A stretch of 64,000 nucleotides of DNA from the NCBI GenBank assembly GCA_963663165.1, contig OY760175.1:3808001-3872000 (forward strand), written 5' to 3'. Numbering within the stretch: position 1 is the stretch's first letter; each line of letters opens with the position of its first letter. The notes under the pieces are model-generated. The model ran no database searches, was not told the DNA's origin, and was given only the letters and a program-made list of their open reading frames with translations. A program made the translations under genes and the position numbers. Positions 5,474-57,802 of this stretch are shown in pieces. This stretch comes from an uncultured Desulfospira sp. (GTDB lineage: Bacteria; Desulfobacterota; Desulfobacteria; Desulfobacterales; Desulfobacteraceae).

Positions 5474-6361
5474 TTAGAAAGAGCCTTCTTCCCAGGCCAC
5501 CAGCCTTACGAATCCGCCGTCAGCCATTTCACAGCGGAAGGGGAATGCGGCAATGATCATCCGTTTGCCGGTCACCGCATCAATATCGCCGCCTGCGTTC
5601 TCAACGGTAATCACGCCGGCCTGCATGTACATCCGGTGGCAGGGTTCATAATCGGGGAATTCCACATCCGGGTCTTTGCCGGTTGCTTTGCGGTATGCCT
5701 TGTCCAGCCACGGCATCTGCTCTTTGAGGGGGTAGTGCCAGAGCGGAGAATCTGTGGCGCCCCAGGTGCCTGAGATCCCTTTGATTTTCTTGTCATGGAT
5801 CAGGTATTCGGCAATTTCAGGCCCCATGCCGGGATAGTAGTTGTAATATTTATCGTTATTGATTCTCCAATAATCTTGGAAACCGGTGTTGATCACCACC
5901 CAGTCATTTTCCCGGATATCCAGGCCGTCTTTTGCACAGGCTTTGTCCACATCTTCGGGCATGATGATTTTCCACAAATCGGGTTCAAAACCGGTTTTCC
6001 AGGTCGCCTCAAACTCCTCTTTTAAATGACGCATATCCAGAATGACGCCGGTCCCCACGCAGTACTCTAACGGCAGCTCATTGAGTGAATACCCGTTGCG
6101 CTCACGGTCCACTTCCTCTTCATGGAGGACATGGTTGGGGGCATCCATATGGGTGCCGGCATGGAGGGTGCCGGTATAGGTCATGGTCCGCTTATGGAAA
6201 CGGCCCAGATACTGTCCTCTCGGGAATGCAAGGTCCTGGCGAGGTCCGGGGAAAGGCCATAACGGCGTATCAACTCCCCAGGGTTGAGAAAGATCATAAA
6301 TCTTGGTCATTTTGTTTTTGTCAAGGTACATTCTGCTTTTATCTAGCGGCATATATGCCAT
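5474..6361 (-). CDS. Cyclase-family (kynurenine formamidase-like) metal hydrolase; candidate ring-opening cyclohydrolase
   Basis: HAGTHMDAPNH (HxGTHxDxPxH) motif; C-terminal 'HR...VENAGG...FP.R...DGGFVRLVA'. Confidence 0.85.
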   Translation of the reverse strand: MAYMPLDKSRMYLDKNKMTKIYDLSQPWGVDTPLWPFPGPRQDLAFPRGQYLGRFHKRTMTYTGTLHAGTHMDAPNHVLHEEEVDRERNGYSLNELPLEYCVGTGVILDMRHLKEEFEATWKTGFEPDLWKIIMPEDVDKACAKDGLDIRENDWVVINTGFQDYWRINNDKYYNYYPGMGPEIAEYLIHDKKIKGISGTWGATDSPLWHYPLKEQMPWLDKAYRKATGKDPDVEFPDYEPCHRMYMQAGVITVENAGGDIDAVTGKRMIIAAFPFRCEMADGGFVRLVAWEEGSF

Positions 6362-6585
6362 GGCTTCTGTCTCCTTTTATTTTATTCTAGTTGAAACCGG
6401 CCAAAGCCGGCGGCCAAGAAGATACGGTTTTGTATATATTGTGGGCCGGTATTTCATATTCTCAAATATATAGGACGGAAATATATGTCAAGAAAAAAAA
6501 CATTTTTGTGCAAAATTTATGGTTTTAGGCCAAAAATTTAGAAAAATTAATTGACATATTACCGATAATTTGCAACATTGCGCCA

Positions 6586-7503
6586 ATGAATAATACTGAT
6601 CTAAAATTGATGAAAGAACTCCAAAAAAATGGGGCGGTTAGCTACTCAGAACTGTCCACCATACTTGGGGTTACCCCGAAAACTGTGGGCAAACGGGTTG
6701 AAAAGCTGATCCAGTCGAGGATCATATCGGTCAGGGCACAGCCGAACCCTTACAAACTCGGGCTGTCCGCCTGTGCCATTGTGGCCATTAAAGCCAATGC
6801 CACCGCCGTTGAAGGAATATGTGATCATCTGGCCGGCTTCTTTCATGTTAATCTGGTTCAGGTCTTTTTCGGAAGATTTGATATCATGGCCATTGTCTAT
6901 TTTCCCGATTTTGAGATGCTGCATCAGTTTATTGATAATGAGTTGTATACCATCGAAGGCGTCACCCAGCTCGAACTATTCTTTGTCCATGAAATTTTCA
7001 AACGGTATGATCGTTTTTTTAAAAAAGAACCGTTCCAGAAAGAACCGGTAAAATTATCCCAGAACGACTGGGAGCTTATTTCAGAACTGTCCAAAGACGG
7101 GCGTTTAAACCCTTCTGTCCTGGCTGAAAAACTCGGCATCCATGTAACCACGGTCTACCGCAGAATCTCGGCTTTAACCGAAGGGGATATTATTAAAATA
7201 AGCGGGGTGCCCAACCCGCTGAAGTTTGCTTACTCGGCCAGTGCTTATATAATGTTGGACGTCAATCCCAATAATGTACAGCAGATCTGTAAAAAACTGC
7301 TCCCTTATAAGGAAGTTCATTTCATCATGACACTGGGCAGGCGGTCAGGAATGATTATCTGTGTTCATTCCACGGATACGGCATCGCTGCATCAGTTTCT
7401 TCAAAAGGTGATCATCCCCTTAGACGGTATCATTGATACGGAAACCTTAATCGGGGCATCGGTGAAAAAAACATATTACGGATGGCTGATCGGAATCGGA
7501 TAG
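6586..7503 (+). CDS. Tandem-duplicated Lrp/AsnC family regulator
   Basis: Two HTH-AsnC plus ligand-binding units (DLKLMKELQKNG...; DWELISELSKDGR...). Confidence 0.88.
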   Translation: MNNTDLKLMKELQKNGAVSYSELSTILGVTPKTVGKRVEKLIQSRIISVRAQPNPYKLGLSACAIVAIKANATAVEGICDHLAGFFHVNLVQVFFGRFDIMAIVYFPDFEMLHQFIDNELYTIEGVTQLELFFVHEIFKRYDRFFKKEPFQKEPVKLSQNDWELISELSKDGRLNPSVLAEKLGIHVTTVYRRISALTEGDIIKISGVPNPLKFAYSASAYIMLDVNPNNVQQICKKLLPYKEVHFIMTLGRRSGMIICVHSTDTASLHQFLQKVIIPLDGIIDTETLIGASVKKTYYGWLIGIG

Positions 7504-7513
7504 GCGGCCCTGC

Positions 7514-7697
7514 ATAACGGCCACGGGCCGCCTTGGTTATCCAACCGAGAGCCGCCCACAACGAATAAGGAAAGTCTTCTCAGGACGTTAGTGAGACTTT
7601 TATATAACGGCCACGGGCCGTCTTGGTTATCCAACCAAGAACCGCCCACAACAAATATTGAAAGTCTTATCAGGATGTTAGTGAGACTTTCATATAA
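7514..7697 (+). repeat. Two tandem copies of a ~90-bp structured repeat
   Basis: ataacggccacgggccg...ttagtgagacttt at 7514 and 7604; third copy inverted at 20846-20942. Confidence 0.85.
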
Positions 7698-7810
7698 AAC
7701 GAAATACCGGCGTCTGCATTTTTTTAAGGCAGATGCCCAGGCTATAGACAAGCCCCGGCAGGGGTTAATTTTAATTAACAGAATGCAAATGACTAGGAGG
7801 CTTAAGGAAT

Positions 7811-8137
7811 ATGAAAGTTGTCAAAAATGCACAAGGTACGCCTTACGAAGCGCCTAAACATTTTGGTGTTTACGGAATTCAAAAATTTGTAGAAGAATCA
7901 AAACGGGTCAAGGTATTTTACTCATACTTTCAACCCAACGGCGGGGCTGACATGTCCGGGTCCCCCACCGAAAAAATATACTATCTGGTCAGCGGCAGTA
8001 TTACCGTAAAAGGCACATCAGAAGAACACGTTATGAACCAGGGCGATATCATTTTTATCGACGCCGGCGAAGAACGTGAAATCACCATCAACGACGGCAA
8101 ACCGGCCGAGCTGCTGGTGTTTATTATCACGCCTTAA
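7811..8137 (+). CDS. Cupin domain protein
   Basis: 'EKIYYLVSGSITV...GDIIFIDAGEER' cupin motifs. Confidence 0.85.
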   Translation: MKVVKNAQGTPYEAPKHFGVYGIQKFVEESKRVKVFYSYFQPNGGADMSGSPTEKIYYLVSGSITVKGTSEEHVMNQGDIIFIDAGEEREITINDGKPAELLVFIITP

Positions 8138-8188
8138 CAGAGGTTTAACAAAGCGTAACCATTCAACAAATATTGAAAAGGATGACCA

Positions 8189-8956
8189 ATGACAGATATA
8201 TTCAGATTAGACAATAAAGTCGCTGTGGTTATCGGTGGGGCCGGCGGAATCGGAGAAGCCTGTTCTGTTGGACTGGCAAAACAGGGCGCCACCACCATTA
8301 TTGCCAGCCGGAACCTGGAAAAGGTTCAGGCCGTTGCCGATGACATCGCATCCAAAACCGGGGCCACAACCGGCGCCTTTCAGGTGGATGCCACGGATGA
8401 AGCCAGCGTCACCAAGCTGGCCGCAGATATTGCCGAAAAATACGGCAAAATAGACATCCTGGTCAACACCCACGGCATGAACAAAAAAGGCGCGCCCCTG
8501 GAATTTGACATGAATGACTGGGACCACTTGTTTTCCGTCAACGTCAAAGGGGTCATGATGGCCTGCCGGGCCTTTGCCAAATACATGATTGACCAGGGAA
8601 AAGGCAAAATCATTAACATGTCCTCTGTCCGGGGCATCCGGGGCACCGGCGGCGGCAATGTGGCCTATGGTGCCACCAAAGGCGCCGTAGACATGATCAC
8701 CCGTATGCTGGCTGCCGAATGGGCACCGTACAACATCAATGTCAATGCCATGGCCCCCTCTCTGGTCCTGACAGACACCATTAAAAAAGCCGTGGCCCCG
8801 GACCGCCTGGAAATGCTGGCCAAAAGCAGCCTTTTCAAACGCCTGGGCACCCCGGAGGAAATGGCAGGGGCCTGTGTGTTCCTGGCCTCTGAGGCATCAG
8901 ATTTCATGACCGGCCAGATTCTTTATGTAGACGGCGGACTGACAGCTGTGGGATAG
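8189..8956 (+). CDS. SDR oxidoreductase, phloroglucinol-reductase-like
   Basis: GGAGGIG, YGATK; atypical 'LVNTHGMN' in place of NNAG. Confidence 0.85.
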   Translation: MTDIFRLDNKVAVVIGGAGGIGEACSVGLAKQGATTIIASRNLEKVQAVADDIASKTGATTGAFQVDATDEASVTKLAADIAEKYGKIDILVNTHGMNKKGAPLEFDMNDWDHLFSVNVKGVMMACRAFAKYMIDQGKGKIINMSSVRGIRGTGGGNVAYGATKGAVDMITRMLAAEWAPYNINVNAMAPSLVLTDTIKKAVAPDRLEMLAKSSLFKRLGTPEEMAGACVFLASEASDFMTGQILYVDGGLTAVG

Positions 8957-9092
8957 AAACACACCTGCCTTGCGTAACTTAAGTTCTTAACCATTGTCCT
9001 GATTGCCCCATGGGTTGGTAAAATTCAACCCCCAGGGTCATCAGGACAATGGTGTTGCATTGGACAATCTTATAATATAAGGAGAAGGGTTC

Positions 9093-10292
9093 ATGCGCTT
9101 CCGGGTTACGGCCATTATCATTGCAGGGTTTACCACTATATTTGCCGCCTTCGGCATCCGGTATTCATACGGTGTCTTACTGCCGGAAATGCTTTCCTCT
9201 CTGGCCATCTCCAACACCGAGGCCGGTATCATCTACTCTTCCTATTTTCTGATCTATACCTTGAGTTCTCCCGTGCTGGGGTTGATGGTGGACCGGACCA
9301 ATGCACGGGTTCTGCTGACTGTTTTTGTCGCTCTGCTGGGCCTTGGCGGCTGCCTGATGTCAACGGCATCAACCGTTTTAACGGCCAGTTTCTTTTTTGC
9401 CATTGCCGGGCTTGGCCATTCCGCATGCTGGGCCCCCGTGGTCACCGTGGTCATGCGATGGGTAAGCCGGGAAAGAAGGGGAATCGTTCTGTCCGTCGTC
9501 GACCTGGGAAGCGCCAGCAGCATCGCCTTCTGGAGCTTTTTGATTCCCATTATCATCGGTTCATTCGAGTGGCGGCTGGTCTGGGTTTTACTCGGGTTAA
9601 CCGCCCTGATGGCGGCGGGGTTGAACTTTTTTGCCATCAAGGACCGGCCTTCCTGCCCCACCGGACCTGAAGAAACATTGAAAAAGCCCAGTGCCTCCAT
9701 CCGGGATACCTACCGGATCATTTTTTCATACCGTAGCTTTCACCTGATTGCCCTGTCCTACATGATGATCAGTTTTGCCATCCTCATTCCCTTTACCTTT
9801 TTGACCGCCTACAGCACCCAGAAGCTCAATATTCCTTATTCATCGGCAGCCCTTCTCATAGCGGTCATCGGCATTTCAGGATCTGTGGGCAAACTGATTC
9901 TCGGCTATGTCTCCGATCAGGTCGGCCGCATCCGGATCATGATGCTTTGCGGTGTCCTGGTGGGGTTAGGGGGGGTGGGGCTGGCGTTTGTACAGAATTT
10001 TTCCCTGCTGGTGATATCAACCATCATTTTCGGTGCCGGATACGGGACCATCTGGCCCCAGTACGCCGCTGCGGCCAGGGATTTGTTTTCCGAAGAATAC
10101 TCGGGCAGCGTCATCGGCCTTTGGACACTGTACCATGGCTTTGGCTCCGTACTGGCCCCGATCATTGCCGGCTGGAGCATCGATGCCACCGGGACCTACT
10201 TTTATGCCTTTATCATGACCATTGCCAGCGCGGTCCTTGCCCTGGTGCTGCTGCTGCCGCTAAGTGCCGGCAAAACAGCCGTAAACAAATGA
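9093..10292 (+). CDS. MFS transporter
   Basis: About 12 hydrophobic segments; 'GLMVDRTNAR' and 'GYVSDQVGR' motifs. Confidence 0.9.
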   Translation: MRFRVTAIIIAGFTTIFAAFGIRYSYGVLLPEMLSSLAISNTEAGIIYSSYFLIYTLSSPVLGLMVDRTNARVLLTVFVALLGLGGCLMSTASTVLTASFFFAIAGLGHSACWAPVVTVVMRWVSRERRGIVLSVVDLGSASSIAFWSFLIPIIIGSFEWRLVWVLLGLTALMAAGLNFFAIKDRPSCPTGPEETLKKPSASIRDTYRIIFSYRSFHLIALSYMMISFAILIPFTFLTAYSTQKLNIPYSSAALLIAVIGISGSVGKLILGYVSDQVGRIRIMMLCGVLVGLGGVGLAFVQNFSLLVISTIIFGAGYGTIWPQYAAAARDLFSEEYSGSVIGLWTLYHGFGSVLAPIIAGWSIDATGTYFYAFIMTIASAVLALVLLLPLSAGKTAVNK

Positions 10293-10294
10293 AA

Positions 10295-10358
10295 AGCACT
10301 GATGAACAGTTACGGGTCCTGATTTTTGCTCATTTTTCAGCATCAGCTGAATAGTCAC
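10295..10358 (+). repeat. Partial (right-half) copy of the 152-bp MITE
   Basis: aagcactgatgaacagttacgg...tcagcatcagctgaatagtcac matches 29360-29425. Confidence 0.7.
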
Positions 10359-10366
10359 AAAACCGG

Positions 10367-10939
10367 TTAAGTTTCAGAAGGAATCATGATGTCATAATAA
10401 TTTTTGTCCTTGGAAGTTTTTTTATAGCTTGCCTCTCCCTTTAATGCATCTATGGCCGCTTGAAATTCATCTCCCAGTCCGGCCGGGTCAGAAATAGAAT
10501 CAGAGTCCCGGTAAATGATACAAAGATGAGACTGCAGCATGGATGTATTGATATAAATAACGGGGCCGCTTCCATTGTCCGTAATAGAGCTTTGAACCAG
10601 GCTTTTGATAAGTTTGAAAACCTTATCGTAATTCCCCTTGAATGCCTCTCCGCTGGGGTTTGAAAAGGATGTTTTAAGATTGTATCTGCTAAACCGGCGC
10701 TCTATGTTGGATAACAATTCCTCAATGTCAATGGGGCCGGGTTTGAACGGCACCCGGTTTTCCCCATACAGGGCATCTATCATGTCTTCCTCAAATTCAA
10801 AAATTTTTGTACTGAGCGAATCAGGGATGACCATGATGTCTTTGTTCTCGTCATCAAGAGACCCCATTGTCAGTGTTCCCTGCTGTTCCTTGATCCAGAT
10901 ACCCCTTTTTAATAATGAGGGATTTTGGTTGTTATCCAT
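10367..10939 (-). CDS. Hypothetical protein, possibly a degenerate histidine-kinase ATPase-like fold
   Basis: 190-aa ORF with GGAG SD; weak resemblance 'LIKSLVQSSI...LCIIYRD'. Confidence 0.5.
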   Translation of the reverse strand: MDNNQNPSLLKRGIWIKEQQGTLTMGSLDDENKDIMVIPDSLSTKIFEFEEDMIDALYGENRVPFKPGPIDIEELLSNIERRFSRYNLKTSFSNPSGEAFKGNYDKVFKLIKSLVQSSITDNGSGPVIYINTSMLQSHLCIIYRDSDSISDPAGLGDEFQAAIDALKGEASYKKTSKDKNYYDIMIPSET

Positions 10940-11274
10940 GCGTTATCTCCCAAGGTCAATAATTTATGAAAAGCCACCCATCTGCTGCGTTTCAGAAAAA
11001 TTTGTAATCCTCAAACCCTTTATGGTTGCTCCGCTTGCAAATTTTTCTGCGCCTTGAATCTGGGCAACTTTTCACCCAAACACGGGTTTTCGCTCAGGCA
11101 CAAATTAGGTGAGCCAAATCTGATGTCTTAATCCAAATGTTTTTAAAATCTATCTGTTATTTAAAAGAATCGCAAGAATTTTATCCATGGCCACGCAAGA
11201 AGGTTGGATGGATATAAAGAAATACCGATCCAAGGGCAGAATCCGGGCCGCCGGGGTTATCCTCCTTTTTTTGG

Positions 11275-12951
11275 CTATCTGCCCGTCCCGCTGGAAAAAT
11301 CAATGGACAACAGATAGGACCTTAAATTTTTCTTTTTGTTTTTGATCCCGAGCTTCTTTCTTAAATTGTGGCGATGGATCTGAATGGTGTTTACCGACAG
11401 GTTCATCAGGTCGGCAATATCTTTGTTGGTTTTGCCTTCCCGGACCAGGGCGGCGACCTCGATTTCCCTGGCGGTCATGTCCGGATGATCCGTTACCACC
11501 CGCCTCATGAAGGGTGTAATGATATCATTGAGGTGGGATTCAAGAATCTCAAGGTAGTTCAGCTGGTTCATGTTCAGGCCCATTTTTTTGAGCTGGTATA
11601 CATAGGGAAGGGCCAGCTCCTTGACGTTCATGATGATTCGCCTTTCCATCTCTTTTTGATCGTCCTCCCGCTGGGCCAGCAGCACCTTTAAAGCGGTATT
11701 GGTTTCTTCTAAGCGAATAGATTTTCTTTCAAGCTCAGCCTCCCTTGATTCAAGCTCTTTCTCGGCCAGTTTTCTGGCCGTATGGTCCATGGAGATCATC
11801 CCGACCACCAGGCGATTCCGGGTATCCCGCAAAGGAAATTTAACCGTATGAAAATAGTGGAACCCGCCGGGGAAATTCATGGTTTCTTCCAGCTCCAGTG
11901 ATTTTCCCTGCCTGAGGATTTCCTGATTGGACCGGCTGATTTTTTGAGCGGTTTCAGATGAGAAGATATCTTCAAATCGTTTCCCCAGAACCAGATCCGC
12001 TTTTAACCCCACCAGGTTTTCCCATGCCGGATTGACCAGTTCAATGGTTCCGTCGGCACTGAAGACACTGATGGGCGCCGGCAGATTTTTTAAAAAAGAA
12101 TGGAGGTATTCATGGGTTTGCCGGTAATTTTGCTCAATCTTGCGCTGCTGGGTAATATTCAAGGTGATGAAAACCACCCCCTGGACCCTGCCATCCTCAT
12201 CTTTCACAGGGCTTGCCACTTCAATAAATGTCCTGCCGTCCTCCAGGAGGGTTTCCTTTTTTTTAACTTCGCCGGCCTTAAAGGTTTCCAGAGGAGAGCA
12301 CTCTTTTATGCACGGGGTGGACCGCCCCCAGATCAATTCATAGCAATATGGGTGGATGGGGCTTTCAGAACGGCTCCGGCCCAGCAAACCGGCGTTATCC
12401 CAAACGATACGGCGATCCGGGTCCAGGTACTTGATGTCGACCAGCCCTTCCAGTGCGTCCAGGATCGCCTGCTTTTCAGATTCTGACTGTTTCAGGGCCT
12501 GCAGGGCGGCCTGGTGTCCGGAGAGCTGTTCTTCTTGTTGTTCTTTTTCCCGGGTAATGTCCAGAAGAATACCGGCCACGGTCTGCAAGGGGTTGCGATC
12601 GCTGCGCTTAACCATGGCAAAGCGATCCCGGACCCAGCGAAATCCTTTGTTTTTCAACTTTACCCGGTATTCGATTTCACAGGGTTGATTTTCAAGGTCT
12701 GTACAATGGGTTATGATCTCGGGGGTTATGATTTTGGCAACCCGTTCCCTATCGTCTTTATGGATCATTTTTTTCCACGTGGAACGGCTGTATTGAACGC
12801 TTCCCGGTGTTTCTTCCAGCATCCCTGAACAATCATCAAAAATCATCATCCCGGTTGCCACATCCCACTCATAAACCGTTAGTCCTGTGCCACAGACAGC
12901 CTGGAATACTCTTTTTCTGGCCTTGGAATCGACCTGGTTAATGGATACCAT
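11275..12951 (-). CDS. Multi-PAS LuxR-family transcriptional regulator
   Basis: PAS motifs (IHKDDRERV, IEYRV...WVRD); C-terminal 'TAREIEVAALVREGKTNKDIA...HRHNLRKKLG'. Confidence 0.9.
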   Translation of the reverse strand: MVSINQVDSKARKRVFQAVCGTGLTVYEWDVATGMMIFDDCSGMLEETPGSVQYSRSTWKKMIHKDDRERVAKIITPEIITHCTDLENQPCEIEYRVKLKNKGFRWVRDRFAMVKRSDRNPLQTVAGILLDITREKEQQEEQLSGHQAALQALKQSESEKQAILDALEGLVDIKYLDPDRRIVWDNAGLLGRSRSESPIHPYCYELIWGRSTPCIKECSPLETFKAGEVKKKETLLEDGRTFIEVASPVKDEDGRVQGVVFITLNITQQRKIEQNYRQTHEYLHSFLKNLPAPISVFSADGTIELVNPAWENLVGLKADLVLGKRFEDIFSSETAQKISRSNQEILRQGKSLELEETMNFPGGFHYFHTVKFPLRDTRNRLVVGMISMDHTARKLAEKELESREAELERKSIRLEETNTALKVLLAQREDDQKEMERRIIMNVKELALPYVYQLKKMGLNMNQLNYLEILESHLNDIITPFMRRVVTDHPDMTAREIEVAALVREGKTNKDIADLMNLSVNTIQIHRHNLRKKLGIKNKKKNLRSYLLSIDFSSGTGR

Positions 12952-13260
12952 TGAATAGGTCCTGTTTAGATTTTCTACTATAAAACAGCTATATTTATTA
13001 GCTGTTTTTTTAATGTTGAATCAATATATTCAGTTAAGATAAGTATAACTACACTGAGCAAGAGATAATGGCAAGACAATTTACGTTTGATTGGTAAGCA
13101 CCATACCATGTTCCAAAGCACTTAAACGGGGCCATCACAGCGGAAGGCAGGCCGATGCCGATTTTTTAACAGACGATGAGAAATGCGGCCTTATATTCAA
13201 ATTATTCAGGAATAAGACCGGGTCAGCAATAAAAACCGTTTTAGCAAAAGGAGATTGAGT

Positions 13261-14274
13261 ATGAGCAAAACAGTTAAAGTATTCATGTGTGTCTTGTTGT
13301 CCATCGGCTTTGTTTCGTCAAGCGCGTTTTGCGGCCCCATGGTTATAAAAGGCATAACTGCCTTTCCCAAAAACCATCTGTCCAATGATCCGGTCCACAT
13401 TTTCGTAGAAAAAATAAACCAGCGGGCCCAGGGGAAATTAAAAATAGACTGGGTAGGGGGGCCTGAAGTTCTGAAGTCCTTTGATCAGATTCACGCCCTG
13501 AAAGCCGGAACCATTGATATGCTGTTATATTATCCCTTTCCTTATATGAAGTCCCTGGTGCCGGTGGCTGAGGCCAAAGCGTTAAGCGAACTCACCCAGT
13601 GGGAAGAACGCGAATCCGGCGCTTTTGACCTGTTAAGTGAAATCCTGGCGAAAAAGGCCAATGCAAAATATATCGGCAGCCCTCACAGTTTTCTGGGCTA
13701 CCATATTTACACCAATAAAAAAATCCTGAGCATTGATGATTTCAAAGGCTTAAAAATCCGGGCTCAGCCCCTTTATGTCCCGTTGCTCAAGGCCCTTGGG
13801 GCCACCCCCCTGACCATGCCGGCACCGGAAATATACACAGCCATGGAACGGGGTGTGGTGGACGGGTTTATGTGGCCCAAAGTCGGCATGATCAGCTGGG
13901 GCCTCCAGGAGGTCACCAAGTACGTGGTTGAGCCGTCTATTTTTCGTATGGGCCAGGCCGTTCTCATGAACATGGACAAATGGAACAAGCTGCCCAAAGA
14001 TATGCAGGACCTTTTCAGCGAGGTGATGCAGGATATTGAATACATTGGGACCATGAGAAACATCATGATCGGCGAATATGAAGACAACGTCCGAAGACAG
14101 GCCGGGATGGAATATCTTAAACTCTCACCGGCCGATGCTGAAACGTTCGTTAAGACAGCTTATGAAAAAACATGGGAACTGGTATTGAAAAAAGCACCCG
14201 AATACGGCCCAAAGCTTCAACAGCTGTCTTCAAAACAGGCCGTGCCCAAAGGCAAATTTCCCTGGAAAAACTAA
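13261..14274 (+). CDS. dctP: TRAP transporter substrate-binding protein
   Basis: Signal peptide; 'DFKGLKIRA', 'EIYTAMERGVVDG'. Confidence 0.9.
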   Translation: MSKTVKVFMCVLLSIGFVSSSAFCGPMVIKGITAFPKNHLSNDPVHIFVEKINQRAQGKLKIDWVGGPEVLKSFDQIHALKAGTIDMLLYYPFPYMKSLVPVAEAKALSELTQWEERESGAFDLLSEILAKKANAKYIGSPHSFLGYHIYTNKKILSIDDFKGLKIRAQPLYVPLLKALGATPLTMPAPEIYTAMERGVVDGFMWPKVGMISWGLQEVTKYVVEPSIFRMGQAVLMNMDKWNKLPKDMQDLFSEVMQDIEYIGTMRNIMIGEYEDNVRRQAGMEYLKLSPADAETFVKTAYEKTWELVLKKAPEYGPKLQQLSSKQAVPKGKFPWKN

Positions 14275-14282
14275 TCCTCCCC

Positions 14283-14318
14283 CCTGCCAAAGCCGGTCTC
14301 CCTGACGGGTTTGGCAGG
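14283..14318. terminator. Intergenic hairpin after dctP
   Basis: cctgccaaa...tttggcagg. Confidence 0.45.
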
Positions 14319-14440
14319 CAATGCATTCTGGTTATTTACCGGAAAGCCCAAAACAGCCCCTTGCAGGGGATTTGAAACATTTATGACGGATGGTTTGGAT
14401 TTTATACCCCAAGGGATGGACTGTTTACGAAAGGTGACTC

Positions 14441-47462: not shown

Positions 47463-47493
47463 TTTACGCCTGGGTTGTGGGAGGTGACAAATT

Positions 47494-48315: not shown

Positions 48316-48371
48316 TTTAATATAAGAAATTCTTATTCGATCAATTACAATGCTGGAGGCAAATATACGTT

Positions 48372-51026: not shown

Positions 51027-51848
51027 ATGGCCATTATAACAATTACAAAAGCCTCATACAGCAGCGGTGAACAAATTGCCGAACGTCTCTCCAAACGGTT
51101 AAAATACCCCTGGATGGGAAGACGGGAACTGTTTGCCCGTGCGTCTGAAGATTTTCATTTTCCTGAAAAAGACCTGGTCGAGGCCGTGGAAGAACCGGCC
51201 AAGATCTGGCAGCAGGACCGTGAAAAGCAGGCGGCCAACTACAATTTAATCCGGGCAACCTTTCTCAAACGGTGCAGCGAAGAAAAAGGGAATCTCGTTT
51301 ACCACGGCCATGCCGGCCCGGAATTTGTCAGACGGATTCCCCATGCCTTGCGGATACTGGTGGTCGGAGAAATGGAATACCGGATTGAACAGGCCATGAA
51401 AATAGACGGCCTGGACCGGGACAAGGCGATTGAAACCATTCACAAAAACGACAAACGGGTCACCAAATGGTCCCAGCAGATGCATACCGTCAACTGGCGG
51501 GATTTCTCCTGGTACGATATGGTCTTTCACCTTGGCCGCCTGAGCGCCGAAAGCGCGGAAGAAGCGGTGGTTGGCATCATCGAATCCGGCGGGTTTAACA
51601 TTACGGAAGAGTCTAAAAAAGCCTTTTATGATGAATATCTGGGCAGCGTTGTCTGGACCAAGCTGACCAATAATGATGAGACCAGCAGCGCCGTTATTGA
51701 GACCATTGCCGAACATGGCCGGGTTACCATTTCAGGGGTGGCGCGCTCTAAAGAGCAAAAAGAGGCCATCACGGCTTTGACCGCTTCCATCGAAGGGGTT
51801 GAAAGTGTGCAGAACAACGTCGGCATCGGCGCCATCTGGCGCTCCTAA
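51027..51848 (+). CDS. Cytidylate-kinase-like protein with C-terminal BON domain
   Basis: 'IITIT..SYSSGEQIAERL'; 'GRVTISG...GVESVQNN'. Confidence 0.75.
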   Translation: MAIITITKASYSSGEQIAERLSKRLKYPWMGRRELFARASEDFHFPEKDLVEAVEEPAKIWQQDREKQAANYNLIRATFLKRCSEEKGNLVYHGHAGPEFVRRIPHALRILVVGEMEYRIEQAMKIDGLDRDKAIETIHKNDKRVTKWSQQMHTVNWRDFSWYDMVFHLGRLSAESAEEAVVGIIESGGFNITEESKKAFYDEYLGSVVWTKLTNNDETSSAVIETIAEHGRVTISGVARSKEQKEAITALTASIEGVESVQNNVGIGAIWRS

Positions 51849-51938
51849 GCAAAAAGCGTTAAGGCCTTTCCTAAAAAAGAGGCCGGACATGAATTGTGCC
51901 GGTATCTTAACGGTGCTGGATGGATCTGTTTTTTAAAC

Positions 51939-51988
51939 CATGAAGAACAAGGAGAGCATGAAGCAACAAATACTTCATGCTCTTCATG
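51939..51988. repeat. 9-mer-based palindromic REP-like element
   Basis: catgaagaa...agagcatgaag / cttcatgctcttcatg. Confidence 0.5.
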
Positions 51989-52028
51989 TTCCGGGTAAAT
52001 ATTTTGACTCATGAATTTGGAGATAAGT

Positions 52029-52547
52029 ATGATAAAACCCATTCAATCGATTCTTTTTGCCACAAATTTGAACAAAACCTGTATCCCGGCTCTTGAAATG
52101 GCCGCCGCCATGGCCACCCGGCATCAGGCCACCCTGGTGCTGATGCACGTGGTGGAACAGATGCCCGAATACATTGAAACCCGCCTCAAAGGGCTGTTCG
52201 GCGAACAGGAGTATGAGGATATGGTTCAAAAAAAATCCAATACCGCCCGTGCGGCCCTGATCGGCAAAATCTCTGCTTCCGGCCTTGTCCGGGAGGCCCT
52301 TGAACAATTTTGCGCCAATGCCGGCATAGATGATGATGCCTGTGATTACCAGGCCAGGGAAATTGTGGTGACCGGGGGCAATCTGGTGGAAGAAATCATT
52401 GCCACCTCAAAAAAATACGATTGCGGTTTCATTGTCATGGGGGCAAGAGAAGGGTTCCTTACCGACAATTCCATCGGCCATACCATCAAATCGGTCATGC
52501 GCCGGTCTAAAATTCCGGTAATGATGGTCCCCCCGCCCCAGGAATAA
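52029..52547 (+). CDS. Universal stress protein
   Basis: 'ILFATN', 'IVMGA...IGHT...V.R.SKIPVM'. Confidence 0.88.
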   Translation: MIKPIQSILFATNLNKTCIPALEMAAAMATRHQATLVLMHVVEQMPEYIETRLKGLFGEQEYEDMVQKKSNTARAALIGKISASGLVREALEQFCANAGIDDDACDYQAREIVVTGGNLVEEIIATSKKYDCGFIVMGAREGFLTDNSIGHTIKSVMRRSKIPVMMVPPPQE

Positions 52548-52565
52548 TGGGCTTGTTACAGGTAA

Positions 52566-53213
52566 ATGGGGATGGATAAAATTAAATTAGATACCGTTTT
52601 ATCCCGGGTTGGGAGGTTAAAGGAATATGCCAGAAATCAGATCATTTATCGGCAGATGGAAGAACCTTCCGGACTCTTTTTTATCAAAAAGGGCAAGGTC
52701 AGAAATTATATTGTCACTGAAGACGGAAAAGAGAAGACCTGTACCATATCCATTGAGGGGGAATTTTTCGGGCTGGCCTATTTTTTCGATGACGGATTAA
52801 ACGATACATCGGCCCATGCCATGGAAAAGTCCCAGATTTATACCATCGGCCATGACGGGATGGAGCATATCTATCGCCATGAGCATGATGTGGTGGTACA
52901 GATCCTCAAATCAATGGCCCAGAAAATGCGGTTCCTCTCTTTTCAGATGACCAGCCTGGCCTTCCTGTCTGCTGACCGGAAAATTGCACAAATGCTGGTT
53001 CACCTTGCCGAGCGGTTCCATCCCCCAGAGCCGGACCCGTTCCCGATTACCATCAACTGTACCCATGAAGATATCGCCCTGCTGTCCAGCACCTCCCGGA
53101 CAACGGTTACCCAGGTGCTCAACGACCTGGAAAAAAGGCATCTGGTTTCAAAAGGATACCGGTCTGTCATTATCCATGATCTGGAAACCATGAAACGCAT
53201 TATTTTTGAATAA
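52566..53213 (+). CDS. Crp/Fnr family regulator
   Basis: cNMP-binding fold (GEFFG) plus HTH 'THEDIALLSSTSRTTVTQVL'. Confidence 0.9.
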   Translation: MGMDKIKLDTVLSRVGRLKEYARNQIIYRQMEEPSGLFFIKKGKVRNYIVTEDGKEKTCTISIEGEFFGLAYFFDDGLNDTSAHAMEKSQIYTIGHDGMEHIYRHEHDVVVQILKSMAQKMRFLSFQMTSLAFLSADRKIAQMLVHLAERFHPPEPDPFPITINCTHEDIALLSSTSRTTVTQVLNDLEKRHLVSKGYRSVIIHDLETMKRIIFE

Positions 53214-53345: not shown

Positions 53346-55931
53346 ATGCCCAGTCAAGACAAAGAGCACGAGATTGAGAAATCAATATTCAGAGGGCTTG
53401 GCTTTTGTTCAATCACCGCAGATGCCAACAGTGTCCAGGTGGACTGCAACAAAGGCAAAATCATCCGAATACGCCCCCTTCGCTATGATTTAAAATACCC
53501 GGACATCACCCCATGGGAAATCAAAGCAAAGGGAAAGAGTTTTTCCCCGTTGAAAAAATCACTGATTCCCCCCTACAGCCTGGGATACAAGAACCGGGTA
53601 TATTCCCCCAACCGGGTTCTGTTCCCCATGAAACGGGTGGACTGGGACCCCAATGGCAACCGCAATCCCCAGAACAGGGGAAAAAGCAAATACGAGCGGA
53701 TCAGCTGGGAAGACGCCATTGAGATCATGTACAACGAAATCAACCGGGTAAAAGAAACCCACGGTATGGAGGCGATCCTGTCCCAGTCCGACGGCCACGG
53801 GGAAACCAAATGCGTCCACTCGGCCCATGGCTGCCACAGACGGTTGTTAAGCCTTCTGGGCGGATACACCCTCCAGACCCGGAATACCGACTCCTGGGAA
53901 GGCTGGGTATGGGGCGCCAAACATGTCTGGGGCTGTGAGAACTTAGGCGAAATGGTACCGGTCAACAACGTTATCGAGGATGTGGCCAACAATTGTGACG
54001 CGGTCTTCTACTGGGGCTGCGACCCTGAGACCACCCCCTGGGGCTTTGACGGACAGCTGGCCAGCCGCATCTGCTACTGGTTTACCGAAGTGGGTGTTAA
54101 ATCCCTTTATGTGTGTCCGGACCTGAACTACGGGGCAGCGGTTCATTCAGACAAGTGGGTTCCCATCTACCCCAACACCGACGCCGCCCTTTACCTTGCC
54201 ATCGCTTACATGTGGATGATTGAAGGCACTTACAACAAAGAATATATCAAGACCCACGCCGTGGGATTTGACAAGTTTGAAGAATATGTCCTGGGCAAAG
54301 AAGACGGGATTGCCAAAACCCCCAAATGGGCCGCTGAAATTACCGGCATTCCCTCTTACACCATCAAGGCTTTGGCCCGGTACTGGGGAAAGAAAACCGT
54401 GTCCATTGCCATTGGCAACGGCGGCCCGGGCATCCGGGGACCCTATGCCACGGAACCTGCCCGGCTCCAGGTGCTGCTGCTGGCCATGCAGGGTCTTGGC
54501 GGCCCCGGGGTTCACCAGTTCAAAATGATCGAATGGGGCATTTACAATAAAAAGCACAATATCCCGTTGCCCCCGCCGTCCAAATATATCCCCGTACTTT
54601 TGGACGCCAACCGGGGATGGAAGTATCAGGATACCCCCCGGCAGTTTATTCCCAAAAACCGGATCCACGACGCCATCCTGAACCCGCCCATCACCTGGTA
54701 CGGCACAGGCCTGTCTCGGGACAGTGTAGAACAGCAGTTCATCCCCTACAAATATCCCCTTGACGATGCCCCGGAAGTTCACATGATCTGGACTGACTCC
54801 CCCTCATGGATGAGCTGCTGGAACGATACCAACATGCTGGTCAAAGCATTTAGAAGTGAAAAAATTGAATTTATTGTGGCCCAGCATCCATGGATTGAAA
54901 ACGACTGCCAGCTGGCCGACCTGATCCTGCCCTCGGCCACGGTCATGGAAGTTAAAGACATTGGTGTGGAAACTATGAGCGGCCAGTTCTCCTGCGTCTT
55001 TTATGAAGACCAGGCCATCCGTCTGCGGGGAGAATCCAAAAGCGATTATGAAATCGTCTGCGCCATTGCCGAGCGGTTCGGCATCCTGGATGAATACACC
55101 CAGGGCAAAAGCGTGGATGAATGGATTGAACGCGGCCATGAGACCTCAGGGGCCGGCGATGAAATCACTTTTGAAGAGCTCAAGGAAAAAGGCTACTACG
55201 TGGTTCCGCCCGACACCAGCGAACGGGGAACCAAGGCCGGAAAGTACGAATTCTATGAAGACCCGGAAAAATATCCCCTGTCAACGCCGTCGGGAAAAAT
55301 CGAGTTTTACTCAGAACGGCTGGCCACCCATTTCCCCGATGACAACGAACGTCCGCCGGTGCCCCGGTATATTGCCTCAGGCGAATCCCATCAGGAAGAC
55401 CGCTTAGGGCCCCGGGGAAAAGCGTATCCGCTGCTGGTGGTCTCCAACCACCCCAAATGGCGGGTCCACTCCCAGCATGACGACATGACCTGGCTTAGAG
55501 AAATCCATACCTGCAAGGTTAAAGGTCCGGACGGCTACCAGTACGAACCGGCCTGGCTCCACCCGGTGGAAGCTGAAAAAAGAGGCATCAAAGACGGCGA
55601 TGTTGTGATCATCCGCAATGAGCGCGGTAGTGTCATGGCCGGTGCCTGGGTTACCGAACGGCTGCGGCCGGATGTGGTTTACATTGACCATGGCGCCCGC
55701 TGGGATCCCATTGTCCCGGGCGAACTTGACCGGGGCGGTGCCATCAACACCATCACCCCCCATAACGTGACCTCAAAACATGCCGGCGGCATGGTGAGCA
55801 GCGGCTTTCTGGTTGAGGTGGAAAAAGCCGACTTGGATGAGCTGCGCAAGCAATATCCGGAAAGCTTTAACCAACCCTACCATGACGGGGCAGGACTGCA
55901 CTCACAGCGCATTATCAATGGAGGAGAGTAA
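53346..55931 (+). CDS. Transhydroxylase-family alpha subunit, DGHGE subtype 3
   Basis: 'QSDGHGETK', 'NTDSWEGWVWG'. Confidence 0.88.
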   Translation: MPSQDKEHEIEKSIFRGLGFCSITADANSVQVDCNKGKIIRIRPLRYDLKYPDITPWEIKAKGKSFSPLKKSLIPPYSLGYKNRVYSPNRVLFPMKRVDWDPNGNRNPQNRGKSKYERISWEDAIEIMYNEINRVKETHGMEAILSQSDGHGETKCVHSAHGCHRRLLSLLGGYTLQTRNTDSWEGWVWGAKHVWGCENLGEMVPVNNVIEDVANNCDAVFYWGCDPETTPWGFDGQLASRICYWFTEVGVKSLYVCPDLNYGAAVHSDKWVPIYPNTDAALYLAIAYMWMIEGTYNKEYIKTHAVGFDKFEEYVLGKEDGIAKTPKWAAEITGIPSYTIKALARYWGKKTVSIAIGNGGPGIRGPYATEPARLQVLLLAMQGLGGPGVHQFKMIEWGIYNKKHNIPLPPPSKYIPVLLDANRGWKYQDTPRQFIPKNRIHDAILNPPITWYGTGLSRDSVEQQFIPYKYPLDDAPEVHMIWTDSPSWMSCWNDTNMLVKAFRSEKIEFIVAQHPWIENDCQLADLILPSATVMEVKDIGVETMSGQFSCVFYEDQAIRLRGESKSDYEIVCAIAERFGILDEYTQGKSVDEWIERGHETSGAGDEITFEELKEKGYYVVPPDTSERGTKAGKYEFYEDPEKYPLSTPSGKIEFYSERLATHFPDDNERPPVPRYIASGESHQEDRLGPRGKAYPLLVVSNHPKWRVHSQHDDMTWLREIHTCKVKGPDGYQYEPAWLHPVEAEKRGIKDGDVVIIRNERGSVMAGAWVTERLRPDVVYIDHGARWDPIVPGELDRGGAINTITPHNVTSKHAGGMVSSGFLVEVEKADLDELRKQYPESFNQPYHDGAGLHSQRIINGGE

Positions 55932-55933
55932 CT

Positions 55934-56758
55934 ATGGCGAAAGTATTAATCTTTGATGTAAATAAGTGCAACGGCTGTCATAACTGCCAGATCGCCTGCA
56001 AGGATGAACACTGCGGCAATGACTGGCAGCCCATAGCCGCCCCGCAACCGCTGACCGGCCAGTTCTGGTGTAAAATCCATGATAAGGTAAGGGGCCAGGT
56101 GCCCAAGGTCAAAGTGGCCTATACCCTGAACATCTGCCGGCATTGCGACGATGCGCCGTGTATCGGTGCCTGCGCTGATGAAGCCATCTACAAACGGTAT
56201 GACGGCATTGTCATCATCGATCCCACCAAATGCACGGGTTGCCACTCCTGCTTAAAAGCCTGTCCTTACGACGATGTGATCTACTACAACGACACCCTGA
56301 ACATTGCCCAGAAATGCACCCTGTGTGCCCATCTGCTGGACCAGGGTGAAAAAGAGCCCCGTTGTGTAGAGGTCTGTCCCACGGACGCCCTTGTTTTTGC
56401 CGAGGAGAGCGAGGCCAAAGATCTGTTAAAAGATGCCGAAGAACTTCAGGGTTCTTTTAATACCAAACCCCGGGTCCACTACCGCAACCTTCCCAAACGG
56501 TTTATTGCCGGCCTGATCTATGATCCGGACAAGGATGAGATCGTTGAAGGGGCATCGGTAACCGTGACGGCCTCGGACAACAGTGAAGTGGTCACCCTTT
56601 CCACCGATGAATTCGGCGATTTCATGAAAGACAGCCTTGAGAAAGGTGTTTACACCCTGACCATTGCCAAAGAGGGATACAACAGCCGGACCATTGAAGC
56701 CGATGTGGTTGACAAAGACATAAACGTAGGGGATATCCCCCTTTATGCGAACAAGTAA
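55934..56758 (+). CDS. BthL-like Fe-S beta subunit (4x[4Fe-4S])
   Basis: 'CTGCHSCLKACPY', 'TDEFGDF'. Confidence 0.88.
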   Translation: MAKVLIFDVNKCNGCHNCQIACKDEHCGNDWQPIAAPQPLTGQFWCKIHDKVRGQVPKVKVAYTLNICRHCDDAPCIGACADEAIYKRYDGIVIIDPTKCTGCHSCLKACPYDDVIYYNDTLNIAQKCTLCAHLLDQGEKEPRCVEVCPTDALVFAEESEAKDLLKDAEELQGSFNTKPRVHYRNLPKRFIAGLIYDPDKDEIVEGASVTVTASDNSEVVTLSTDEFGDFMKDSLEKGVYTLTIAKEGYNSRTIEADVVDKDINVGDIPLYANK

Positions 56759-56776
56759 CCGGGAAGGAACCAGACC

Positions 56777-57079
56777 ATGAGAGCGATCATCAATATTTTC
56801 TCTAATTATCTTGCTGAAAGTACCGGCTGGCGGGCAAGGGCCATTTCCGTGGAAGGCAAAGAGGCATCATTGAAATCCATTCTGGAAAACAGCCCTCTGG
56901 AAAAAGCTCAGGGCACCCTCCATGAGCTTTTGAGCGCCGGTGACACCTTTAAGGATGATATATCCATTTTTATCAAAGGAGACCTCTACTTTGGGGACAA
57001 AGTAGACGTTCATACCATGATAAAGGACAATGAACAGCTTCATATCGGGGATTGGCCATTTGAGGTCAGAGACGGATGA
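56777..57079 (+). CDS. MoaD/ThiS-like beta-grasp protein ending in -DG
   Basis: 100 aa; 'ISIFIKG...TMIKDNEQLHI' pattern. Confidence 0.55.
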   Translation: MRAIINIFSNYLAESTGWRARAISVEGKEASLKSILENSPLEKAQGTLHELLSAGDTFKDDISIFIKGDLYFGDKVDVHTMIKDNEQLHIGDWPFEVRDG

Positions 57080-57132
57080 TTAGCAGCTGTTGGCTATTAG
57101 CTTTTAGCTGTTAGCCGTTAGCCATTAGCTTT
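57080..57132. repeat. 7-mer tandem repeat (ttagcNN)
   Basis: ttagcagctgttggctattagcttttagctgttagccgttagccattagcttt; similar tracts at 32195-32218 and 45418-45456. Confidence 0.6.
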
Positions 57133-57262
57133 TAAGGGATGACGGCTGTCAAGAAATTTGCTGGAAAAGAAAAGCCATACGGCTTTCTTAAAAAAGGGTT
57201 AAGGGGAGTGAACACAATGTTCACCCTTAACAAATTAAAACATATTGATAAAGGGGGTAACA

Positions 57263-57802
57263 ATGGAAAACAACGCACAGAAAAAATCATGGCCGCCCGG
57301 AGATCTGCCTTACGCCCACAACAGTATGGATCTTAAAAGCGCTGTGACATTAATGGAAGGTGCCCAGAACAAAGCCCGTGAGCTGGGATTTGCCATCACC
57401 ACGGCCGTTTGCGATGCAGGCGGGAACCTGGTTGCGATTCAAAAGATGGATGATGCGGCCCTGCTTACCCTGGAAATCGCCCAGAACAAAGCCAAAAGCG
57501 CTGTTTATGGAAAGATGCCTACTGCACTGTGGCAGCAGTCTTTTAAGGGGCCCTCTGCGGAACTCATCCCCCTTTATTTTCACAGTGACTGGATCACCTT
57601 CATTGGCGGATTCCCGGTCATCATTGACAAGCAGCTCATCGGCGGCTTCGGCATTTCCGGCGCCACCTGGGAAGACGGACTGATTGCCAGGGCCGGATTA
57701 GAGGCCTTAGGGGCCGAGACCCAGGGGGTTGACAAATGCCTGGAAATCATGGGCCCCCCAAAAGAGATGCCCAAACTGCGGTATACCTTTCCGGGATGGT
57801 AA
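57263..57802 (+). CDS. GlcG/HbpS (DUF336) heme-binding family protein
   Basis: 'AVCDAGGNL...MDDA...EIAQNKAKSA', 'GGFPV...IGGFGISG...ED'. Confidence 0.85.
   Translation: MENNAQKKSWPPGDLPYAHNSMDLKSAVTLMEGAQNKARELGFAITTAVCDAGGNLVAIQKMDDAALLTLEIAQNKAKSAVYGKMPTALWQQSFKGPSAELIPLYFHSDWITFIGGFPVIIDKQLIGGFGISGATWEDGLIARAGLEALGAETQGVDKCLEIMGPPKEMPKLRYTFPGW

Follow-up and report, generated by a model that had tools for sequence, protein, structure and literature searches.

A gene island with four transhydroxylase-family molybdoenzyme pairs in an uncultured Desulfospira: a candidate sister of the phloroglucinol-type ring-opening route

Gene content and conservation of the island

The window analyzed here is a stretch of 64,000 nucleotides (positions 3808001-3872000) from the single-contig, 6.74-Mb genome of an uncultured Desulfospira sp. 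(G000). It contains, at 5474-57802, a gene island with four alpha/beta pairs of the AthL transhydroxylase family of molybdenum (Mo) enzymes, a cyclase-family hydrolase, a short-chain dehydrogenase/reductase (SDR) and a cupin (Table 1). A preliminary description of this DNA had listed these genes, together with a major facilitator superfamily (MFS) transporter, three related DctP proteins and paralogous regulators, as one region for the catabolism of polyphenols and trihydroxybenzenes. Every listed part is present where it had been placed, but a fifth Mo enzyme of another family, decayed alpha fragments and five pairs outside the window had been missed. The host is a sulfate reducer, as had been presumed, judging from its dsrA gene, which scores over the curated cut-off. 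Members of the AthL-type family turned up in 15 of the 401 phylum genomes and in 4 of 41 relatives (both censuses include G000, and the phylum census scored two candidates per genome, that is, presence and not copy number), so four pairs at one place are more than chance.

Two other genomes of the same genus, G001 and G002, were compared with the window. G001 matches 5463-20190 and 32192-57932 at 92 to 95% identity, and these two halves are adjacent there. The span 5474-57802 is therefore not one original block, because 20191-32191 is missing from G001 while its flanks are contiguous; on this comparison, the ~12 kb in between are a later insertion and not an original part of the island, and the earlier picture of a single region holds for the two halves only. 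Similarity to G001 stops at 57932, marking the island end. The island is conserved and under purifying selection, with dN/dS values (approximate count method, against G001) of 0.013 to 0.24 in all 23 island genes tested. In G002, neither the Mo enzymes nor the cyclase family had a match. The closest cyclase relative with a name, at 98% identity, comes from another uncultured Desulfospira sp. (L003) with identical gene order. One of the decayed alpha fragments is 83 to 93% identical to A9, an alpha encoded elsewhere in G000, and such fragments imply turnover of copies.

Table 1. Positions of island features and of the insertion within the window
Feature	Position	Strand	Remarks
Cyclase-family metal hydrolase, PF04199	5474-6361	-	putative sister subfamily of dihydrophloroglucinol cyclohydrolase (DPGC)
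Tandem (double) Lrp/AsnC regulator	6586-7503	+	divergent from cyclase
Cupin, PF07883	7811-8137	+	kind found in phloroglucinol-type clusters
SDR, phloroglucinol-reductase-like	8189-8956	+	
MFS transporter	9093-10292	+	monocarboxylate-type matches under cut-off
PAS-PAS-LuxR regulator	11275-12951	-	kept in G001
TRAP transporter 1 (dctPQM)	13255-16237	+	
Fifth Mo enzyme, another family, three genes	16294-20199	+	alpha with N-terminal Fe-S domain, ferredoxin-like beta, NAD(P)H flavoprotein
Insertion: type I restriction-modification, Schlafen-like gene, toxin-antitoxin pair, MscS	20191-32191		no match in G001
TRAP transporter 2 (dctPQM)	32227-35250	-	downstream of A1/B1
B1 beta	35495-36358	-	one ferredoxin motif missing
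A1 alpha, AthL-like, SHH clade	36333-38849	-	R153K, W354E, C557A versus AthL
Second tandem Lrp/AsnC regulator	39366-40358	+	
A2 alpha, GHG clade	40633-43275	+	A2/B2 pair 40633-44099
B2 beta	43254-44099	+	full extra ferredoxin motif
HD-domain protein	44354-45415	+	accompanies GHG pairs in this bacterial family; paralog in second island, G013, G021
Orphan DctP	45558-46571	+	65% to transporter-2 DctP
Decayed alpha fragments, two	46777-47047, 47337-47468	+	one A9-like, one A4-like with upstream DNA
B3 beta	47494-48315	+	extra motif present
A3 alpha, GHG clade	48372-50972	+	B3/A3 pair 47494-50972, beta-alpha order
Cytidylate-kinase-like/BON, Usp, Crp-family genes	51027-53213	+	kept in G001; pathway role only candidate
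A4 alpha, GHG clade	53346-55931	+	A4/B4 pair 53346-56758
B4 beta	55934-56758	+	extra motif present
ThiS/MoaD-like small protein	56777-57079	+	homologs in L011, L029, L030; accompanies A4-type pairs
HbpS/GlcG-like protein	57245-57802	+	last island gene

Molybdoenzyme alpha subunits fall into two deep clades

G000 encodes nine transhydroxylase-family alpha/beta pairs: four in the window, four at 1.086-1.152 Mb in a second island and one at 4.391 Mb. Two or three copies of AthL-like genes had been noted in Chloroflexi genomes, as far as the available parts of those papers show (PMC3971608 and PMC4959651, respectively). All four window alphas contain PF21423 (the AthL-type first domain), PF00384 and PF01568 and lack an N-terminal Fe-S domain and a twin-arginine (Tat) motif. 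AthL of Pelobacter acidigallici (4v4c, also named PgtL) is the best solved-structure match of A1 (E 5e-261), A3 (2e-116) and A4 (2e-133), and A2 was placed against it as a profile row, with no search on its own. A model of A4 (pLDDT 89), built on a 122-row alignment, also has 4v4c as its best fold match (TM 0.84, 31% identity).

The alphas split into two deep clades, named here by the residues around His144 (AthL numbering, from 4v4c alignments). The SHH clade holds A1 and, elsewhere in the genome, A6, A7 and A9; the GHG clade holds A2 to A4 and, elsewhere, A5 and A8, with A3 being 76 to 80% identical to A5 and A8 of the second island. A second alpha tree is a quick IQ-TREE run with SH-aLRT support only, and AthL is not among its rows. 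A1 scores 871 bits against 4v4c and the GHG clade 393 to 450 bits, and GHG members are 35 to 37% identical to A1. His144, Asp174 and Ser175 are kept in all four window alphas and in 63 of 63 aligned rows, and Trp176 is also kept in the four. We take Ser175 to be the Mo ligand and His144, Asp174 and the pocket residues to have catalytic or substrate roles in AthL. Of eight pocket positions (Ser143, Tyr152, Arg153, Trp354, Tyr404, Phe468, Cys557 and Tyr560), A1 keeps all except the three replaced in R153K, W354E and C557A, whereas A2 to A4 keep none and have the Tyr560 region deleted, although the alignment is uncertain around 404 and 468. Thus, the likeness to AthL/BthL extends to alpha/beta architecture, first domain, His144/Asp174/Ser175/Trp176, fold and the lack of a Tat motif in the whole set, and to most of the pocket in A1. 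The differences are the three replacements in A1, the lost pocket of the other three and an extra ferredoxin motif in the betas of these three.

How large is the GHG branch? Of 8000 proteins scored with an A4 query, 4645 belong to the family at E <= 1e-100. The top 120 matches have generic names only, none of them with a tested function, and carry the exact five-residue motif in 99 cases. Judged from these matches, the branch is very large and without a characterized member in the literature searched. That search, with most subscription journals outside it, gave no paper characterizing the GHG clade or the window cyclase subfamily, and the available part of one paper names only PgtL and RhL as characterized in the family (PMC10100899). 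Plasmid matches to A1 (9 of 15 records) are 43 to 47% identical, with no clear pathway context in the two plasmid records examined.

Beta subunits and the electron wire

The four window betas all have Fer4_11 ferredoxin motifs and a C-terminal CarboxypepD_reg-like domain. They are distinguished by an extra motif, the first three cysteines of the second ferredoxin motif. This motif is absent from 34 of 35 rows paired with SHH alphas, the lone exception probably being mispaired at a locus with both clades; among 26 rows paired with GHG alphas it is complete in 21, retains two of three cysteines in 4 and is absent from 1, with one further row unclassed (some rows are close relatives or come from the same genome). 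Within G000, it is absent from four of four SHH betas and present in five of five GHG betas. BthL reportedly has three Fe-S clusters. We infer electron exchange with a partner for the GHG pairs and perhaps none for the SHH pairs. Because GHG alphas keep His144, Asp174 and Ser175, have lost the pocket and are paired with the extra Fe-S motif, they would likely add or remove hydroxyls with net electron flow. At the second cysteine position of this motif, the betas of A4 orthologs in L120, L010, L011 and L030 carry Ser, His or Asn, presumably the pattern of a three-iron cluster.

The ring-opening module

The window cyclase likely opens a reduced cyclic 1,3-dione. Aligned with DPGC-type proteins, to which it is 27 to 29% identical, it keeps the metal ligands H67, H71, D73, H77, H242 and E254. 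Trp20 and Tyr22 lie at the DPGC substrate site in the available text of the study on Clostridium scatologenes (PMC10470551); the window protein keeps the former (W35) and has F37 in place of Tyr22 of the C. scatologenes enzyme (CsDPGC). Both residues are present in L001, our stand-in for CsDPGC, chosen by its cluster context, Trp20/Tyr22 and protein ends matching published primers. In a tree of 42 rows, which included 12 of the 80 loci described below and in which long-branch joins are to be distrusted outside the window clade, 13 window-type cyclases form a 100/100 clade apart from a four-row DPGC-type clade (L001, L146, L151 and L227). The best 120 of 271 cyclase matches are 71 to 92% identical, indicative of a tight subfamily. 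True DPGC-type and window-type cyclases coexist in three genomes (G044, G046 and G391), and G044 holds a full canonical cluster, a window-type cluster and a third related set. Since the cyclase lies apart from the DPGC clade and three genomes encode both types, its substrate is probably not plain phloroglucinol. Isatin hydrolases are its only solved relatives, and no DPGC model was among the NCBIfam matches of six cyclases. The DPGC list of the same study, in the part available, has no Sporobacter row, and its Sporomusa rows belong to a 311-residue cluster (PMC10470551).

The window SDR is likely the ring reductase. It has the unusual motif Ser146-x-Arg148 in common with phloroglucinol reductase (PGR; 5G4K) and all 10 cluster SDRs aligned, and it is 40% identical to the SDR of the L001 cluster. 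Searched alone, it does not bring up 5G4K among 33 solved matches at E <= 1e-35, but a 10-row profile that includes canonical-cluster SDRs places 5G4K second of 71. The NADPH-site motif of PGR is given as TR(S/N) in the text available (PMC10470551); the window SDR has S40-R41-N42 at this position and 5G4K has T-G-R-N. The cupin is 36 to 41% identical to cupins of the L001 and L048 clusters.

Neighborhoods of cyclase orthologs

From 248 loci with a cyclase relative, the best 80 were kept (76 to 98% identity), and neighbors were counted within 10 kb, although many loci end at contig ends. A TfD-like dehydrogenase is near 61 of these 80 cyclases, an SDR near 44 (three of them weak generic matches), a keto-acid cleavage enzyme near 39, an AthL-family alpha near 28, a thiolase near 27 and a cupin near 14. 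One alpha of each clade occurs in 10 of the 28 alpha-bearing loci. In L029 and L011, a single gene run comprises an A1-type pair, a keto-acid cleavage gene, the cyclase, an SDR, a dehydrogenase, an A4-type pair and a ThiS-like gene; L005 combines cyclase, cupin, SDR and an A1 ortholog (87%); and the only two family members found in G046 both flank its cyclase. Given the single run in L029 and L011 and the linkage in L005, gene order groups the left module with A1/B1, A4/B4 and the small gene at 56777 as one evolutionary unit, which bears out the earlier claim that the left module and Mo pairs belong together. Across the 401 genomes of the phylum, the same five hold a cyclase of at least 86%, an A1-type alpha of at least 69% and a GHG alpha, four of them from one family. 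Ring opening of the phloroglucinol type is supported because cyclase orthologs adjoin dehydrogenases, keto-acid cleavage enzymes and molybdoenzymes.

A physiological link comes from Sporobacter termitidis, which has a window-type cluster and one UbiD-family gene. A DPGC-like cyclase was not found in it, nor was any class I benzoyl-CoA reductase subunit over the cut-off. This bacterium grows only on methoxylated aromatics and cleaves the ring of substrates including syringate and vanillate, according to the available part of its description (PMC4585845). S. termitidis ties the cluster to phenolics.

Lower pathway genes in G000

The later dehydrogenase and keto-acid cleavage steps had been expected to lie outside the window, and neither is encoded in it. 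A search of the remaining genome, as had been suggested, did not find them either: TfD queries from six clusters give 34 to 35% at best in G000, no TAL ortholog was found there, and neither TfD nor TAL orthologs were found in G001. The only keto-acid cleavage gene of G000 was rejected as TAL; it is unrelated, scores under all four NCBIfam cut-offs and lies beside aminotransferase and TAXI-TRAP genes. NCBIfam assigned none of seven sister-type or L001-type keto-acid cleavage enzymes over cut-off. G013 and G021, of the same bacterial family and with four matches each, also have no keto-acid cleavage gene, and their TfD-like proteins reach 39% at most. The L001 keto-acid cleavage enzyme has a Trp where six of seven sister-type enzymes have Gly, Val or Leu.

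Upstream entry genes were also sought in G000. UbiD gave 0 matches while controls were positive in 9 of 14 cases, so gallate is not obviously decarboxylated, and a phloretin hydrolase query from L001 gave no match at E 1e-8. Tannase and DAPG-hydrolase families gave 0 matches as well, but their controls gave no signal either. The funnel for tannin or flavonoid monomers that had been proposed is weakened by the missing UbiD-type gallate decarboxylase and phloretin hydrolase. Four amidohydrolase-2 genes lie far from the islands.

How, then, could the ring-opened product be processed? In G013 and G021, an A6-type pair, a cupin and an SDR are followed by an ADP-forming acyl-coenzyme A (acyl-CoA) synthetase, an enoyl-CoA hydratase, and an OB-fold and thiolase-like pair, whose G000 homologs lie at 1.082-1.085 Mb and 4.517-4.522 Mb. 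G000 also has several generic 3-hydroxyacyl-CoA dehydrogenases, thiolases and CoA ligases and an acetoacetate-CoA-ligase-like gene. A CoA-dependent ending in G000 is plausible, because the synthetase, hydratase and thiolase-like genes of G013 and G021 are also present there. The available texts describe CoA transferase and thiolase steps in P. acidigallici (PMC8624197) and an aldolase ending in Collinsella (PMC13039779), so TAL is not obligatory.

Proposed route and alternatives

Every reaction and substrate proposed here is predicted from gene content, clades, residues, co-occurrence and selection. By the membership tests run on these sequences, the island is not a member of the transhydroxylase plus phloroglucinol pathway. 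The phylogenetic check proposed with the preliminary description puts A1 in the AthL-like SHH clade, and the cyclase and three alphas in separate clades. All four pairs do belong to the AthL family, as claimed, but only A1/B1 is AthL-like; and the claim of a phloroglucinol-type lower pathway stands for its ring-opening logic, drawn from ortholog neighbors, and not for the hydrolase itself, which is distinct from DPGC and coexists with it. We estimate at about even odds (0.5) that the island encodes a sister of the phloroglucinol-type route acting on a substituted, probably carboxylate-bearing polyhydroxybenzene and not on plain phloroglucinol. A different substrate is indicated because of the separate cyclase clade, the coexistence with DPGC, the pocket changes of A1, the cleavage-enzyme residue and Arg169 of the DctP proteins. 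This arginine is kept in all three window DctP proteins (40 to 65% identical to each other) and is placed like the carboxylate-binding arginine of SiaP and TarP in the available structural reports (PMC4646407 and PMC3610893).

In such a route, the TRAP systems (tripartite ATP-independent periplasmic transporters) would import aromatic acids, and the GHG pairs A2, A3 and A4, with their full Fe-S wire and rebuilt pocket, would add or remove ring hydroxyls with net electron transfer. The AthL-like A1/B1, with its shortened wire, would shift a hydroxyl to give meta-placed oxygens. The SDR would then use NADPH to reduce the keto tautomer to a cyclic 1,3-dione, which the cyclase would hydrolyze to an open-chain oxo acid. 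Most carriers would continue with a hydroxyacid dehydrogenase and a keto-acid cleavage enzyme, and G000 could use CoA activation, hydratase and thiolase/aldolase genes encoded elsewhere.

Several points weigh against this reading. The assignment rests on context, and the literature searched holds no measured activity for these subfamilies. DPGC-like proteins span six UniRef50 clusters in the list as available (PMC10470551), so a cyclase identity of 27 to 36% does not exclude the same reaction as DPGC. The gene set of S. termitidis is also what would be expected of an isofunctional DPGC. Arg169 narrows the substrate little, because most DctP proteins keep an arginine, and the Trp position of the cleavage enzymes is a weak guide, because sister-type L041 has Trp next to the expected place and canonical-context L180 is without it. 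In other genomes, no A2- or A3-type enzyme was encountered next to the cyclase, their relatives being solitary or in a second-island setting; many gut Oscillospiraceae loci have cyclase and dehydrogenase with no Mo enzyme within 10 kb and may belong to cross-feeders on a reduced intermediate. Electron exchange by the GHG pairs would be a weaker proposal if RehS and DbhS, betas of enzymes for net hydroxylation, also have a short wire. Furthermore, the CoA-dependent genes are conserved beside the second island and not the window island, and census rows are not mutually independent.

Ranking next after the sister pathway, though unlikely in our estimate, is the ordinary sequence from pyrogallol through phloroglucinol to acetate, run by divergent isofunctional enzymes, with the extra Mo pairs feeding other di- or trihydroxybenzenes (e.g., hydroxyhydroquinone) into phloroglucinol or making a tetrahydroxybenzene co-substrate. 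Pelobacter massiliensis reportedly performs such sequential transhydroxylation of hydroxyhydroquinone. The nine AthL residues that A1 retains (S143, H144, Y152, D174, S175, W176, Y404, F468 and Y560) fit this reading, as do the S-x-R motif common to SDR and PGR, the enzyme set around cyclase orthologs, which mirrors PGR-DPGC-TfD-TAL, and S. termitidis, a syringate cleaver in the text available, with one UbiD-family gene and no other DPGC-like cyclase. It is harder to reconcile with genomes that keep a true DPGC beside the window type, one of them with three related sets, with the lack of UbiD matches in G000, and with TRAP binding proteins that point to acids rather than neutral trihydroxybenzenes.

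A doubtful reading that ranks behind it, partly compatible with the sister pathway, holds that the route is truncated or a mosaic in G000, with only A1, A4, SDR, cupin and cyclase forming one pathway and A2 and A3 serving other substrates; the ring-opened acid would be exported by the MFS protein, or the Mo enzymes would act as an electron sink. The missing TfD and TAL orthologs in G000 and G001, the absence of a keto-acid cleavage gene from G013 and G021, the copy turnover seen in the decayed fragments and the kinship of A3 with A5 and A8 all suit it, but strong purifying selection acts on all genes tested, the generic CoA enzymes named above could finish the route, and, at 96.7% genome completeness, a gene could be missed. 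An N-heterocycle route of the hydroxypyridine, pyrimidine or indole type, with Mo hydroxylation, SDR reduction and cyclase action on a cyclic amide or imide, is improbable. Cyclic amide/imide hydrolysis is the usual reaction of the cyclase family, with isatin hydrolases as its solved relatives; the GHG pocket is rebuilt, and a beta-hydroxy amide acid would suit dehydrogenase and keto-acid cleavage. However, among the 45 most frequent neighbor clusters (Pfam on 15 representatives, the rest by eye) no amidase, deaminase or urease was found, the nearest relatives of SDR, cupin and cyclase are phloroglucinol-cluster proteins, and the physiology of S. termitidis, as available, is phenolic.

Comparison with known systems and implications

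RehLS of Aromatoleum anaerobium and DbhLS of Thauera aromatica AR-1 come from nitrate reducers with an oxidative hydroxyhydroquinone route. They offer a precedent for net ring hydroxylation by an AthL relative, and they belong to the same Ser-ligated RhL/PgtL family, according to the available part of one study (PMC10100899). The PGR-DPGC-TfD-TAL cluster of C. scatologenes, in the text available (PMC10470551), resembles the island in combining an SDR, a cyclase-family hydrolase, an MFS protein and a regulator, in the cyclase metal ligands and Trp20 position, and in the TfD-like and keto-acid cleavage genes added at ortholog loci elsewhere. It differs in that the window cyclase has its own clade and Tyr22 changed to Phe, the SDR is only ~40% identical to cluster SDRs, G000 has no TfD or TAL orthologs found, and two kinds of Mo enzyme accompany the module. 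Sulfate reducers with DPGC-type clusters are already known; the locus adds a nine-pair expansion in a sulfate reducer, sister and canonical hydrolases coexisting, and an apparent loss of the usual lower steps in Desulfobacteraceae.

The spread of the cluster suggests that a parallel pathway is conserved in Desulfobacterota, Bacillota, Spirochaetota and Synergistota. We propose only tentatively that aromatic acids from lignin or polyphenols are degraded here by a so far undescribed anaerobic pathway; its redox-active GHG branch and an AthL-like hydroxyl mover would together produce a meta-oxygenated ring, to be opened with no benzoyl-CoA and no plain phloroglucinol. If so, it would supply the missing ring-cleavage route of S. 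termitidis and many gut, digester and sediment anaerobes, and a branch of thousands of enzymes would receive its first function; nine pairs would make a sulfate reducer a polyphenol specialist of unusual breadth. What becomes of plant polyphenols in sediments, digesters and guts is governed by the anaerobic opening of their phenolic rings, and such genes are currently annotated as pyrogallol transhydroxylase, TMAO reductase and kynurenine formamidase. With S. termitidis DSM 10068 and Sporomusa silvacetica DSM 10669 as cultured carriers and with small soluble enzymes, the substrate is directly testable.

The fifth Mo enzyme, regulators and accessory genes

The alpha subunit of the fifth Mo enzyme (16294-18447) has acetylene hydratase 2e7z as its best solved match (E 9e-73, the next 2e-70) and no Tat motif. 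Two paralogs at 56% lie at genome positions 4266318-4274831 and 3573221-3577104, one of which adjoins a corrinoid protein, MtaA-type methyltransferases and an activator, suggestive of O- or S-demethylation. Another Mo enzyme, like acetylene hydratase and catechol dehydroxylases, is encoded near 79.7 kb (79345-83194) with TRAP genes and a third tandem-Lrp regulator; its ortholog (72%) adjoins an A7-type pair in G013, and a hydroxyproline dehydratase HypD over cut-off lies near the 79.7-kb gene. Catechol dehydroxylases of Eggerthella and Gordonibacter, as far as the available report goes (PMC7028382), have the best solved match in common with both enzymes, whereas the window enzyme is partnered by an NAD(P)H flavoprotein and shares just 33% identity with the 79.7-kb gene.

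The two tandem-Lrp regulators of the window are 49% identical, with further paralogs beside A9 and the dehydroxylase-like gene. We dismissed as a regulon site the 22-base motif that B3 and A4 share in their upstream DNA: it has only two genome occurrences at <=4 mismatches and is part of the duplicated A4 upstream region. The 11-mers common upstream of 20 genes are only -35-like words, and promoter and terminator counts are close to those of shuffles (24 versus 19.4 and 25 versus 27.1, respectively). The HD-domain protein has an atlas score of 0.96 to HD clusters; the ThiS-like gene scores 0.92, with ThiS on 15 to 30% of cluster members. The Oscillospiraceae loci (L049, L052, L053, L056, L061 and others) additionally hold a MerR regulator, a sodium:solute symporter, DUF3870 and a CoA transferase.

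Second island and mobile DNA

The second island (genome 1077000-1156000), conserved in G013 and G021, encodes A5 and A8 (GHG), A6 and A7 (SHH), TRAP systems and an HD protein, beside a cupin, an SDR (47% to the L001 cluster SDR), a hydratase and the OB-fold and thiolase-like pair. Its tandem cyclases form two further 100/100 clades, and it may represent a third sister pathway, one with a retro-aldol step at its end. At its N terminus, the A7-type alpha (1138185-1141286) carries ~170 additional residues that match no Pfam family; long A7-like forms are also encoded by S. termitidis (with ETF/FixCX-like and dehydroxylase-like genes nearby), by S. silvacetica and on plasmids of proteobacteria. 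The A9/B9 pair, with Trp354 kept, lies at 4388638-4396884 with an acyl-CoA ligase, a tandem-Lrp regulator and an MFS gene.

The insertion contains a type I restriction-modification locus (21072-28164) in which a Schlafen/AlbA_2 gene separates hsdR from hsdM and an hsdS-like region is split over two open reading frames (26941-27609 and 27640-28164). A TumE-like toxin gene and its helix-turn-helix (HTH) partner follow at 29464-30088, and 167-base inverted repeats at 29268 and 31697 flank the TumE-like/HTH genes and the MscS gene. Two tandem 90-base repeats at 7514-7693 have an inverted copy at 20846-20947, at the insertion edge, and similar sequence elsewhere in the genome. Past the island, 58043-63884 holds an IS701 transposase and then an rve transposase, an AAA ATPase and a RepB primase, a set that recurs at genome 4.277-4.281 Mb.

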